64,000 bases of DNA from Promethearchaeota archaeon (GCA_030599585.1 JAUVNS010000001.1:288001-352000), one strand, 5' to 3'; positions 25,741 through 33,488 are shown, numbered from the stretch's first letter. Numbers and translations are program-made. The notes: generated by a model not told the origin, from the sequence alone.

Positions 25741-26382
25741 TTAGTTATCTTTAGTGGTGATTAGTGAATTTTTTAAATTCTCTCTAAATTGTTTAATACG
25801 ATCTAATTCTTTCAATTGAATCTCAGTATTCTCGGGTAAATTTTCAGTATGCAAATTTAATTCAAAATCAATGCTAAAGCTAGTACAAAACTGTTTTAAT
25901 TTTGATATAATTAATTCCATATTCTCTTTTCGAAAACGCAATAAAAATATTCTTAAGTCTTGTGAATCCCTTTCAGTTGTCACTTTTACCACGTAATTAT
26001 GTTTAAATTTATAAGAATTGAAATATTTTTCATTAGAAATATCTACTTTTTTAATTTCAAACCATAATAATTTTAAATAAACTTGGTTTTGAAGTAAAAT
26101 TTTTATTTCTTTGGCTGTTATAAAACATTTTACATAATAAATTGGAGTGTTGCGATTAAGATATTTTTTTATGGTGTAATATCCCATTATTAATAATGTA
26201 ATAGTTACGAAAAAGAAAAGAAGAAAACCAAATGTATTAACTTCTTGGTAAAAAATGATTACCAAAGTGATTATTACAATGATAGGCAAAATGAATGGGA
26301 TTGTAGTAAACAACAGATCAATTATAAATTCTCTTTTATAGTGGTCTTCCACTTCAAATAGTTCTTCATTCAAATTATTCAT
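25741..26382 (-). CDS. Hypothetical 2-TM membrane protein with a PH-like soluble domain
   Basis: Two N-terminal TMs, then I..KEI.I...W.EIKKV bPH-like pattern; very AT-rich. Confidence 0.65.
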   Translation of the reverse strand: MNNLNEELFEVEDHYKREFIIDLLFTTIPFILPIIVIITLVIIFYQEVNTFGFLLFFFVTITLLIMGYYTIKKYLNRNTPIYYVKCFITAKEIKILLQNQVYLKLLWFEIKKVDISNEKYFNSYKFKHNYVVKVTTERDSQDLRIFLLRFRKENMELIISKLKQFCTSFSIDFELNLHTENLPENTEIQLKELDRIKQFRENLKNSLITTKDN

Positions 26383-26428
26383 GTAAAATTCCCTATATGT
26401 TAATATTTTTATAAAAAAAAAAAAAAAT

Positions 26429-32400: not shown

Positions 32401-33097
32401 CAGATTCTGTATCGTTGCTATAAGAAGCGTTGAAATAAAGTGGACACGATTCAAAAATAAAAGCTTCGTCTTCTGTTATCTCTATGATAAAAGGACAATC
32501 ACATTTTAACGGTTCAATTATAAAGTTTGCTTTAGGCGCAACATTGTTAATATCTATAAATTTAGTTGTTGAATTGAACGCATTTTGGTCGTCAAATACC
32601 GTTAAAGTAACGGGATAAGTTCCTGCCTCTATCCATTTCTTGCTAACATTTTCAGTTGTTAGATATGTTCCATCTCCAAAGTCCCAATTATATTTGACAC
32701 TTTCTAAATCAATTTCAGACTCAAGTAATTCGTAAGTTGAGAGATTTACTATCTCATCTTCATAAGCGAAGGATACCATTTTGATATCAAATATGGGGGG
32801 TGCATTCATGATTTCCACTTCACAGGTCTTAACATCTGTCAGTCCTGCGAAGCTCACAGCAGTTAAAGATATTAAATATTTACCCTCATATTGAAATGAA
32901 TGAGTTATATCTATTTCGGCTGGACCTAATTCTTGATAGGGTGTCCCATCATGAAAATCGACATAAAATGCTACAATATCTGCTTGCCATACACTATCTG
33001 CTTCGAATTCAAATAGAACAGGTTCGTTAACATCTGCTATAAGTTTGTTTGATTTAAATACCACGATCATTGGAGTTAACGGACTTGCTGCTATCAT
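26429..33097 (-). CDS. Giant surface protein: multiple PKD domains, TSP3-like Ca-binding repeats, Cys/Trp-rich insert and hydrophobic multi-helix C-terminus
   Basis: WDFGDG...Y.V.LTV.DDDG PKD repeats; DxDxDG..D..E...GTDP repeats; ~6 C-terminal hydrophobic helices. The frame is open 39 codons further upstream. Confidence 0.85.
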   Translation of the reverse strand: MIAASPLTPMIVVFKSNKLIADVNEPVLFEFEADSVWQADIVAFYVDFHDGTPYQELGPAEIDITHSFQYEGKYLISLTAVSFAGLTDVKTCEVEIMNAPPIFDIKMVSFAYEDEIVNLSTYELLESEIDLESVKYNWDFGDGTYLTTENVSKKWIEAGTYPVTLTVFDDQNAFNSTTKFIDINNVAPKANFIIEPLKCDCPFIIEITEDEAFIFESCPLYFNASYSNDTESDLGSLQYYWDFGDGQTGWGLGIVHQYIQSGEYDVSLTVRDDDGTIDVIHKTVYVINEAPTIDLIEEFITINEGETFVFEVDSSDSFPDSPLLNYSWSFGDSGWRVSNLWTDDFIGDVNVSVEDPEGLSATDGTKITVENVPPHINLNWAYIDVNVTAFIKAPTPKVCNFSVEFIGDGETEVGYLVGKPSGENRMETPPIPFRFDLSKDYVIKINRTHELLPGVYYIDLVFSFLDGSSFSIGTSFSEFWPGWKLDPDEFTARLADHMYKMPITFEGSIFDPSKDDIHVEADFKLHLLLEIDFPGAADISYPYTKTLTIPHDPNHILYEAYVYNESGKIYSDLTFTQKLAIDDYYENEFPTNIPIKFTFYPIDLSFLEMHQQINIDGAQVINIIEAVNILEVYAEDDDGGQDSKTVKIDTTQGTTDFINFAPDAFIYAYGSSYEDEIVPMFADLFDFDNDATLNVEWNFGDGSPMETASGDAEIFHTYENEGVYLITITASDGDATSKTGTLIEIFNRVPEITLKNIYPNILEDQYVRLNESSSFSDSDSDLDELRFYWDFGDGYTYYDLDFIPFWGEQCDSSLRGHVWAESGFYNLTLFVFDDNGVFNSTMIIMNVTNEPPLIEGPYGFEGLEGTVINLDMAVFDSIADEWGLDFIWDVNGEILYGNKPSICLNDGDYTGNLTVSDMDGDTTTIDLDFIIEGITPTVTTSSKYIYGPPGEISLNAYTLDSFMDSSNIFYNWTFNGTTSITEHSSTINFKYEISSTYKCIVEAYDDVGKRGMAQFEIVVVLDSDGDGITDEIEAMLGTSPDDSDCDGDLLTDWYEEYIYGTDPLNADTDADGLPDGYKYGIKGEFYYGTDPLSNDTDNDNLTDSCEIFGWELTIDYYEDPVNYPDVYVTKIFAVDSDPLKFDTDFDGVSDYSEYVNGTDPRNKDSDNDGVDDLEDLYPWKVDADGDGLSDSKEREIGTDPNKKDSDEDGLSDSEEVYPGQDGYITLPLVADSDGDLLLDGQEVYSVTKEIKERKKLSTGWNTFILSTERTKRIIQAGLTTSISVGEGVNTVDLTIQLFLQSELLFEKQASNQRYYVNVSDIKQIVENSGKTFGGEWKLKIHSSMDCLLEEYALAFTKYLNPRAADTDNDGILDGVEVNPEENNGWITNPAKRDTDGDTINDKYEIDMGWNPNSRDTDGDGVEDWADADPLHNLIVMVRVNTAKYDDIFQIFNPTLQVTLEVEADPEHKWEVATPTEVASDGNRPIIVYLPWIYWYCWTSCITIPWLDCYWIKKCASTWLGKICWWALRCRWRSYTICTRFCVPYPGLKPFTIGSVNTIAKFDDEYYFDVDDGDTDISIKAELWKFYLLGWLPHVDGVINHDFMKDGEMNTQEKFIYSGSNFINISIETKGIPRVNTVAVYENGTFYNGHYSAIEKMTVVLLDVNSGTNDYFVAGINAILIPTSVFTNSKLHRIIETSVDEFGIVSDSKWYDVPSCIKGANVSGINREELKDSISPNVECVIAKTLNAEDAYDLLLLAVTSANETEGIIYGYTNDYVAESLGVASDILELIPLNMGDLQNSEVGVWPRTPWQNFIQIIVEIIQFIIDVLVAIGEFFVALFEWIMEIGMNLMEAITQTILAAVEAILKAVILVFIYLMFALLLILMIPMILILLPAVLLLSNILGIEPQISINSITAQNDYFNFYFGYSIGLDYVSFLDLYIPSLTFSIICNDLSFEVSSNFFKTDTDSMEDTVIDIITFETNEDPNPESSDYEQTGETPKTSLLIQPPSGLDIVEYPQGFDFESFSSGVLLAFDLIAIGMNVDALSAFAMKPATPQNKLAMRLIRVAIAFSVIALICGFLTAIFDTPQTDPDSYFFGLAVGSFIVAGMLFISSLIFGGLSGKIPKQIENLIAFFFVGGLVLDLIGPLLGIIGTDINNINPLEFFGDIGASLGIVGIVTGVIAIVLNPDLDERSSQLDLWYKVSFFLGMIGIFIWRILMIYNQP
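28810..30040 (-). repeat. Thrombospondin type-3-like (DxDGDG) Ca-binding repeat region of the giant protein
   Basis: More than ten D[ST]DxDG[LIV]xD units, many with GT[DN]P linkers. Confidence 0.8.
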
Positions 33098-33488
33098 CGC
33101 TACATTTGCTAAAATTATTGTTAAAAGTACTCCGAATGCTTTAATTAATAATTTTTCTCGTTTTTTAATATTAAATTTAAGAATAAATTTCGCCTCTATT
33201 TTTTTTGTTAAATTTTATTACTCCTTTTTTTCATGTGAAAAAAGGAACAAAGAATGTTATGTTAAACTGTTATATAAATATTACATTTTTGTGAAATTTT
33301 TGAGAATTATATAAAAAACGCAAATGAGATTTTCGACTAATACTAGATTTCTGAAAACATTGCTAAATAAGATATAAAAACTCTTTTTATGTCTGACACA
33401 TTAAGAGAATAGTATTACTTTTCTTAAGGATAGAAGCTGGTCTGAAGAAAATTCTTCTTTAATGCAAATAAACCAATCATTGAGGTGA

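Follow-up and report, generated by a model that had tools for sequence, protein, structure and literature searches.

What is the purpose of a giant archaeal surface protein whose membrane-embedded end shares little sequence with that of its closest relative, and does the small membrane protein encoded beside it belong to that end? The question is raised by the gene P0001 and its downstream neighbor P0002, found in a 64,000-nucleotide stretch of DNA from a Promethearchaeota archaeon (GCA_030599585.1 JAUVNS010000001.1:288001-352000), hereafter called the window. P0001 (26429..33097(-)) encodes 2222 amino acids (aa) counted from its first ATG. A first-pass annotation, made from the sequence alone, had read the locus as an undescribed Asgard polymorphic toxin/immunity pair or as a machine for engaging the membranes of partner cells. 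The open reading frames (ORFs), their 46-bp spacing, the AT-rich gene with two transmembrane segments on the same strand, and the order of the domains, with Pfam matches to PKD and TSP3, all agree with that description; the GC content is 0.238 for P0002 versus 0.355 for P0001 and 0.340 +/- 0.032 across the ORFs of the window. In our estimate there is an even chance that P0001 is the expressed copy of a Lokiarchaeia-specific surface module that switches its C-terminal cassette.

Conserved core, variable tail and orphan copies

Evidence for a switched cassette comes from comparison of P0001 with its homologs. The closest of these, P0004, is ~90% identical to P0001 up to residue ~1878 and ~22% identical beyond it. 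In windows of 30 aa, identity is mostly 83-100% from residue 1331 to ~1870 and then 13-33% to the end, and the collapse sits at KAVILVFIYLMFA, within the second helix (helix 2) of a predicted helical hairpin. A full-length homolog, P0005, shows a similar drop, from 55-68% identity over stalk and core to ~26% over the tail. Among the collected relatives, the best match of the P0001 tail (residues 1880-2222) scored 43 bits, compared with 571 bits for the core with P0004; the tail of P0004 itself went undetected in this search, and a search of the window's own genome with the P0001 tail returned only itself. The break is also seen between neighboring copies. Tandem copies in one relative (G097:C56) have cores that are 90% identical and tails that are 27% identical, and the DNA of two tandem-paralog pairs is 81-97% identical over ~800 nt before falling abruptly to ~45%. 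On these comparisons, the uncoupling of core and tail is general in the family, and the alignments indicate that the cassette is exchanged within the family by recombination at the helix-2 motif.

The family itself, which spans a C2-fold domain through the helical hairpin, was delimited by scanning 1.84 billion representative proteins in full with HMMER, P0001 residues 1430-2222 being the query. There are 167 relatives at E<=1e-3, of which 28 reach E<=1e-30. Their shared core corresponds to P0001 residues ~1554-1989, normally followed by 200-350 further residues, and they are either the C-termini of 2,000-6,000-aa giants or proteins of ~500-750 aa. All named members are from Promethearchaeota/Lokiarchaeia and are annotated as "hypothetical" or "PKD domain-containing." Profile searches found the family in 34 of the 161 genomes of the class, often in multiple or tandem copies, and as weak matches in 2 of 239 genomes elsewhere in the phylum. 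A metagenome scan with a single core sequence returned nothing, and one with alignment A4 returned two loci. Literature searches turned up no published description of this family; judged by sequence, the C2-through-hairpin module is an undescribed, Lokiarchaeia-specific family without a Pfam model. The genome of the window carries a second member, a 2315-aa ORF (G000:C3:~85245-92190; 3´ part, L064:4245-8000) whose tail, at 759 aa, is far longer. The 469-aa gene downstream of this second member (L064:2676-4082) and its equivalent in G095 have narrowly sub-threshold matches to PF00882, Zn-dependent phospholipase C (E 7e-5 and 2e-5; 23-25 bits versus a cut-off of 26.8).

The short members of the family lack signal peptides, and their starts are scattered over the TSP3 repeats, C2 domain and alpha/beta domain. 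In relatives, such 5´-truncated copies lie in tandem directly downstream of full-length genes (G127:C51, G097:C56 and G009:C71). At G127:C51, for example, a 3941-aa gene is followed by a 193-aa gene with two transmembrane segments, a 759-aa copy, a 154-aa gene and a 694-aa copy. Arrays with this layout, in which small membrane-protein genes stand between the truncated copies that follow a full-length gene, were recorded as L047 (G127:C51:27000-41000), L048 (G097:C56) and L014 (G009:C71). Other copies contain in-frame stop codons (G137:C41, G137:C35, G056:C11 and G015:C6). By analogy with systems discussed below, the truncated, signal-less orphan copies could act as recombination donors.

Partner genes downstream of the cassette

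P0002 is predicted to form a hairpin of two transmembrane helices (~residues 22-70) followed by a ~140-aa domain, with basic residues after the second helix. Because of these basic residues, both termini and the ~140-aa domain would be cytoplasmic, so that contact with the P0001 tail would take place within the bilayer. The layout of two transmembrane helices and then a domain fits that of bPH/YdbS-type proteins, and P0002 has no Pfam match. One other partner has a sub-threshold match to bPH_3 (E 0.036), and the language-model neighbors of P0002, PH_40 and bPH_7 (0.91-0.92), are leads only.

In profile and iterative searches, genes of the P0002 family were found to adjoin members of the giant family in at least six genomes, among them G137, G009, G097 (on two contigs), G041 and G015. 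Other cassettes precede different small membrane proteins, including a second recurrent family that consists of two transmembrane segments and a soluble domain (L053, L061, L047 and L095). Comparison of the three partner groups with hhalign gave nothing significant; jackhmmer united the G041 partner with the P0002 family, and the group B partners remained separate. By a crude hydropathy criterion, 24 of the 27 downstream genes encode membrane proteins, versus 42 of the 77 other ORFs in the same loci.

Two comparisons illustrate how tail, core and partner are related. In G086, the closest full-length reference ortholog, the stalk and core are 48% and 49% identical to those of P0001, the tail is unrelated (E 0.89), and the partner belongs to the second family. 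The core of G097:C75 is only 28% identical, yet at this locus the tail is related to that of P0001 (E 1e-10) and the partner resembles P0002 (E 4e-6). Across 24 loci, a partial Mantel analysis gave r 0.41 (p ~3e-4) between tail and downstream gene given the core, and r -0.09 between core and downstream gene given the tail. These data suggest that the downstream gene tends to change with the tail, not with the core.

P0002 also has more distant relatives, two-transmembrane proteins of ~183 aa (L075-L094, e.g., L077:1501-2049), whose genes keep a conserved syntenic setting across many genomes from a single genus of the class, flanked on both sides by genes of ~430-450 aa without transmembrane segments. 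At L077, the one such locus that was scanned with Pfam, the flanking genes encode a class-III aminotransferase and a VWA/zinc-ribbon protein.

Domain organization and membrane placement

The features of the locus are collected in Table 1. Pfam defines the stalk by PKD_4 (8.9e-60, six stretches) and PKD (9.2e-44), alongside TSP3_bac, and NCBIfam gave only far sub-threshold repeat matches (TIGR00864, 50 bits versus a cut-off of 1861). Neither insert, at residues 381-650 and 1241-1360, matched Pfam at E<=5, and the "P-domain-like" sandwich previously proposed for the second of them found no support. Beyond residue ~1430 there were no Pfam matches, and both Pfam and NCBIfam were blank over the C-terminal 790 aa and P0002. 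The signal or transmembrane segment assigned to the N-terminus is encoded in frame; it lies upstream of the first ATG. Structural assignments in the table rest on AlphaFold2 (AF2) models.

Table 1. Features of the P0001-P0002 locus, listed in the direction of transcription, with positions in the window
Feature	P0001 residues	Position	Strand	Remarks
Signal-peptide-like segment		33098..33169	(-)	In frame; basic residues, then a hydrophobic run; without canonical start codon
PKD-domain stalk	1-1020	30038..33097	(-)	Pfam PKD_4, PKD; insert at ~381-650
TSP3-type Ca-binding repeats	1021-1240 and 1361-1430	28808..30037	(-)	TSP3_bac 7.1e-12; repeats legible in translation
Beta-rich insert between TSP3 blocks	1241-1360	29018-29377	(-)	No Pfam match
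Predicted C2-fold beta-sandwich	1431-1633	28199..28807	(-)	AF2, VIA and Foldseek; conserved acidic motif YYFDVDD
Cys-rich core of Cys/Trp beta-hairpin	~1496-1541	28475..28612	(-)	8 Cys; inserted in C2 loop
Alpha/beta domain	1634-1804	27686..28198	(-)	Best-conserved part of family; alignments and AF2 models
Hydrophobic helical hairpin	1805-1905	27383..27685	(-)	Two helices of ~40 and 49 residues, the first with an acidic face
Boundary motif KAVILVFIYLMFA	1866-1878	27464..27502	(-)	Inside hairpin helix 2; last family-conserved block
Hypervariable C-terminal cassette	1879-2222	26432..27463	(-)	End of helix 2, then beta segment, linker and transmembrane helices
Cassette beta segment	1906-1958 (beta-sheet)	27203-27382	(-)	AF2
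Cassette acidic disordered linker		27053-27202	(-)	AF2
Six Gly-rich transmembrane helices of cassette	2021-2219	26432-27052	(-)	AF2
Spacer between P0001 and P0002, 46 bp		26383..26428	(-)	Run of 15 T (26413-26427) right after the stop; A/T-rich TATA-like box ~26 bp before the P0002 ATG
P0002, partner gene, 213 aa		25741..26382	(-)	Begins 46 bp past the P0001 stop

The conserved unit that follows the stalk was modeled with high confidence (residues 1431-1810; predicted local distance difference test score [pLDDT] 91, predicted TM-score 0.74). With VIA-align, residues 1431-1633 matched the C2 domain of cPLA2 best (Z 13.3, root-mean-square deviation [rmsd] 2.6 A over 119 residues), followed by the C2 domains of myoferlin, extended synaptotagmin, otoferlin and perforin (perforin Z 11.7); the top 50 were all C2 domains, and the C2 matches have rmsd values of 2.1-3.0 A over 105-120 residues. 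Foldseek also finds C2 (probability 1.0, TM-score 0.67 to the target). By this model, residues 1431-1633 have the eight-stranded beta-sandwich fold of a C2 domain. Pfam C2 did not match them even at E<=5; the acidic motif is conserved across homologs. A C2-fold domain without a Pfam C2 match, probably extracellular and in an Asgard protein, is relevant to the prokaryotic past of a domain that is mostly considered eukaryotic. For the suggested machine that engages partner membranes, this domain provides a lead and nothing more.

Inserted in the C2 domain is the Cys/Trp hairpin noted in the first-pass annotation, which proved to be real. Its eight Cys have the mirrored spacing 3-7-5-8-5-7-3, accompanied by nine Trp, and AF2 models the insert as a long beta-hairpin (pLDDT ~86-97; strands 50-87 and 90-138) that is aromatic on both faces and laddered with Cys. 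Its presence is lineage-specific, with 2-10 Cys in close homologs and a Trp-rich, Cys-free version in one distant homolog; most members lack it altogether. The acidic motif that comes after the insert is retained across homologs.

Less can be matched in the remainder of the protein. The alpha/beta domain had no Pfam (E<=5) or PDB sequence match, and its language-model neighbors (TseH-like, 0.88; DUF3750, 0.87) fell under the level of a lead. Another AF2 model, of residues 1550-2222 (673 aa; 46-sequence alignment; pLDDT 75.6), bears out the ~90-aa helical run described earlier as two long helices within residues 1805-1905, at 1809-1848 and 1854-1902. It also contains the acidic linker and the Gly-rich bundle that had been noted, with six C-terminal helices in place of the "about five" counted from the sequence. 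Hydropathy marks a hydrophobic run at residues 1811-1909 and more hydrophobic segments within 2026-2221. Foldseek with the 673-aa model found nothing at E<=1e-3. Matches of the helical part to a designed channel and to ChRmine (E 2e-4 to 0.2) and a match to an amylase (E 0.34), all from PDB profile searches, were treated as compositional. A fusogen reading was dropped, as the BFVD viral library gave TM-scores <=0.23 and nothing fusogen-like.

The predicted placement has the stalk, C2 domain and alpha/beta domain outside the cell, in agreement with the signal-like start, the Ca-binding repeats and the ladder of Cys. The helical hairpin would then cross the membrane twice, and the beta segment and linker would again be outside. 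Loops of the tail carry 5 Lys or Arg on the predicted cytoplasmic side versus 0 outside, in keeping with the positive-inside rule. Because the basic residues fall on loops that would be cytoplasmic, the six-helix tail has the appearance of a domain that resides in the membrane of the producer itself.

This placement bears on the possibility of a classical pore-forming polymorphic toxin, secreted or delivered by contact, whose tail would be cleaved and would insert into the target from outside, with P0002 as the immunity protein. The locus fits the template of a stalk, a conserved boundary, a variable C-terminus and an adjacent small membrane gene; the tail helices are Gly-rich; and Foldseek pairs the long beta-hairpin with the pore stems of lysenin and aerolysin (E ~1e-4). 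However, these are matches of the hairpin alone, with TM-scores of ~0.1 and rmsd >25 A, and the hairpin belongs to the conserved C2 domain instead of the tail and is absent from most members. In addition, eight hydrophobic helices would be stop-transferred into the producer membrane, with their basic residues on loops predicted to be cytoplasmic, and no releasing peptidase was recognized in Pfam or PDB profile searches. We consider such a toxin very improbable.

A receptor or channel coupled to adhesion, similar to polycystin-1 or the adhesion G-protein-coupled receptors (GPCRs), would make different use of the same topology. The stalk would sense contact or force, the bundle would signal or conduct, P0002 would be an accessory subunit, and the diversity would be driven by viruses or ligands. 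The combination of PKD repeats, a juxtamembrane module and a polytopic C-terminus suits this model, as does a partner in the membrane with a predicted cytoplasmic domain, and a conducting assembly would be consistent with the Gly-rich helices and with the acidic face seen on the first helix of the hairpin. Known receptors of such layout, however, conserve the membrane domain, which here is the most variable part; no channel or receptor fold matched above the generic helical level; and orphan cassettes are foreign to receptor families. A receptor or channel is thus an unlikely identity for P0001.

The ends of the two genes carry further information. The P0001 frame is open for 39 codons upstream of the first ATG, to 33214, with in-frame stops at 33215-33220. 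Between the signal-like segment and these stops there is no ATG, GTG or TTG. Homologs have signal-like N-termini, and one close homolog begins within the equivalent hydrophobic run. Since the signal-like segment has no ATG, GTG or TTG and homologs begin signal-like, the segment is probably translated from a non-canonical start that gene callers miss; the ATT at 33169-33167 is a candidate start codon. Close homologs of P0001 likewise have a signal-like segment upstream of the ATG without ATG, GTG or TTG. Downstream of P0001, the short spacer contains elements like those that in archaea mark the boundary of transcripts, a T run as putative terminator and a TATA-like box as putative promoter. Together, the 15-T run and the TATA-like box suggest that the P0001 transcript terminates in the spacer and that P0002 has a separate, leaderless transcript.

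The neighbors of P0001 are unrelated oxidoreductases and several surface proteins of FG-GAP and NosD/beta-helix types. The predicted surface proteins are at 18972-20681(-), 23410-25695(+) and 35757-37553(-) of the window; two are NosD/right-handed beta-helix proteins and one is a 761-aa FG-GAP repeat protein convergent with P0002.

A cassette-switching model and its relation to known systems

How might these parts work together? The model that we favor, and to which we give about as much weight for as against, is a polymorphic surface module that switches cassettes and has a cognate partner in the membrane; it would function in conflict or identity. In this model, the PKD/TSP3 stalk would present a conserved juxtamembrane unit composed of the C2 domain with its Trp/Cys hairpin, the alpha/beta domain and the helical hairpin. 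The cassette past the helix-2 motif would be swapped by recombination, with orphan copies as possible donors. The helical hairpin and the six-helix bundle would sit in the producer's own membrane, where P0002 would bind its cognate bundle via its two transmembrane helices, and the pair would form a strain-specific device for conflict or for distinguishing self from non-self. The bundle could be a channel or another membrane-perturbing element, rendered harmless solely by the matching partner. Non-kin would be met by membrane contact or exchange between wall-less cells, aided by the C2/hairpin unit; alternatively, the pair may be a pure identity tag. "Toxin/immunity" and "identity pair" are both compatible with the data; harm by the tail would need transfer by membrane contact, which is conceivable between wall-less cells and would suit the C2/hairpin unit.

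A number of observations weigh against this model. About four locus pairs carry the co-variation of tail and partner, and genomes that are related do not count as independent samples; the Mantel signal persists without the long-tail subfamily and drops to r 0.14 (p 0.06) after one more locus is removed (five loci in all). P0002 has a single close homolog (P0003, 85% identity) among 5.8 billion clusters. The weaker members of ~183 aa, which make up the majority of the P0002 family, occur in 58 of the 161 genomes in a conserved context unrelated to the giant family. No orphan cassette was found at the window locus. The tails have a uniform architecture and are not unrelated toxin types: all 32 that were examined share the end of helix 2, an extracytoplasmic segment of 100-500 aa and mostly four to six transmembrane helices (fewer in a handful). 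A wide VIA search with the P0001 tail gave only generic helix bundles (Z<=8.1), leaving the earlier label of a "pore-former-like" C-terminus without support from fold comparison. No toxin, peptidase or defense domain was found in the P0001 tail, P0002 or seven other tails with Pfam and PADLOC, the latter giving no matches at all. The loop charges fit a tail that is inserted co-translationally as a resident of the producer's own membrane, and no step for its release or delivery is evident.

Much of this could be expected of an ordinary giant adhesin with a weakly constrained, fast-drifting polytopic anchor, in which paralogs retain similar 5´ cores through gene conversion and the neighboring genes are incidental or generic insertion helpers. 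Such an anchor would account for an architecture that is constant everywhere and obeys the positive-inside rule, for the lack of a detected toxin domain (Pfam/PADLOC, eight tails), and for the many unlinked members of the P0002 family, and the sharp boundary in tandem copies could stem from conversion of the core instead of a swap of the tail. Within-genome conversion fails, however, for orthologs in different organisms, where core and stalk are ~90% or ~62% identical and tails ~22-26%. It also leaves unexplained why a tail is nearer to those of loci with distant cores than to that of the closest ortholog. Neither 5´-truncated, signal-less copies nor a downstream gene that tracks the tail over the core is predicted by drift. 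We see a drifting anchor as a rather unlikely alternative. Even as a plain anchor, the protein would define a family of which the literature searches found no description, with a precise recombination boundary and a C-terminal module without a Pfam model.

Set against these points, parts of the original proposal stand. The toxin/immunity pair is supported insofar as the core is kept while the last ~340 aa are replaced, orphan cassettes exist, and G086 contrasts with G097:C75; what finds no support is the toxin as such, no toxin fold or domain having been found and the tails sharing one architecture. Likewise, the expectation that homologs would keep the N-terminal part while tail and downstream gene co-vary is borne out by the replacement of tails and by the overall correlation, and is tempered by the small number of pairs behind that correlation and by the unlinked P0002 members.

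Lokiarchaeia live in close physical contact with partner cells. In a bolder version of the cassette-switching model, wall-less Lokiarchaeia might use the module for contact-dependent exchange across membranes, with the C2/hairpin unit docking to the bilayer of a neighbor, the cassette acting on the other cell, and the matching two-transmembrane partner giving tolerance. We hold this to be improbable. If true, archaea would have an equivalent of the outer-membrane exchange with polymorphic toxins seen in myxobacteria, and the lineage closest to eukaryotes would offer a prokaryotic example of a C2 domain used in trans-membrane docking.

Parts of P0001 resemble those of other known proteins. Like the C2 domains that dock to bilayers (cPLA2, ferlins, extended synaptotagmins, perforin and Notch ligands), the P0001 domain is predicted to have the C2 fold and an acidic motif, together with its aromatic/basic hairpin insert. 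Unlike them, it would be extracellular and beside the protein's own membrane, and the likeness is one of modeled fold. If true, an Asgard cell has on its outside, next to the membrane, a fold that is usually taken for a eukaryotic module for docking to membranes. Polycystin-1 and the adhesion GPCRs share the sequence of PKD or adhesive repeats, juxtamembrane module and polytopic C-terminus; here, however, the PKD repeats are the only sequence link, no GAIN/GPS or channel fold was found, and the membrane part is variable. Pore-forming colicins and ionophoric CdiA-CT toxins are homologous, diverged membrane-active domains, each with a specific small integral-membrane partner that acts in the bilayer. 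Those toxins differ in being soluble before insertion and arriving from outside, and no fold or sequence similarity of the P0001 tail to them was found.

In Myxococcus, resident membrane-anchored toxins reach kin through membrane exchange. The Proteus IdsD/IdsE and Myxococcus TraA with SitA/SitI systems resemble the P0001 locus in their strain-specific variable regions, side-by-side cognate pairs and action by contact (PMC3820747, PMC6372800). They differ in that there is no homology, their delivery is bacterial (type VI secretion system or outer-membrane exchange), and exchange is not evidenced here.

The closest parallels in genetic organization are with two systems. Polymorphic toxin systems, which are scarce in archaea in their classical form, are defined by a C-terminal domain that is replaced from standalone cassettes while the rest is kept (PMC3482391), and our literature searches found no description of one in Asgard archaea. 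Like the bacterial systems (CdiA/CdiI, Rhs and WapA; Zhang et al., 2012, PMC3482391), the P0001 family has a long, repeat-rich surface stalk (six PKD and TSP3; homologs of 2,000-6,000 aa), a sharp conserved boundary followed by a C-terminus that appears to be replaced by recombination, 5´-truncated orphan cassettes downstream of full-length genes, here in relatives, and a small gene beside each cassette that tends to change with it. Unlike those systems, P0001 has no homology to their trafficking, pre-toxin, peptidase, toxin or immunity families. Its cassettes are one polytopic module, not a set of unrelated enzymes, so that the diverse, recognizable toxin domains of those systems have no equivalent. 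The cassette resembles a resident membrane domain with no evident route of release or delivery, and no matching secretion system is known for the archaeal host.

VARTIG of the Thermococcales (Makarova et al., 2021, PMC8416519) is likewise a large archaeal surface protein of Ig/PKD type whose hypervariable C-terminus arises through recombination; the smaller genes downstream of it can be aligned to the C-terminal portion of the large protein, and a role in conflict or self/non-self recognition has been proposed (PMC8416519). The variable part of VARTIG is an extracellular Ig domain with a putative sorting signal (arCOG07710-type), whereas that of P0001 is predicted to be a membrane six-helix bundle that follows the C2, alpha/beta and hairpin domains. 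P0001 has no C-terminal sorting motif, which sets it outside VARTIG; the lineage and domain content are also different, and no sequence relation to P0001 was seen. By sequence comparison, then, P0001 is not a member of any described family, and its genetic organization matches that of polymorphic toxin systems and VARTIG. If the cassette-switching model is true, Lokiarchaeia possess a surface system that is specific to the strain and is diversified through the exchange of cassettes, and its variable element is a membrane bundle paired with a membrane partner, unlike the enzyme-tipped toxins of bacteria and the Ig-tipped VARTIG.

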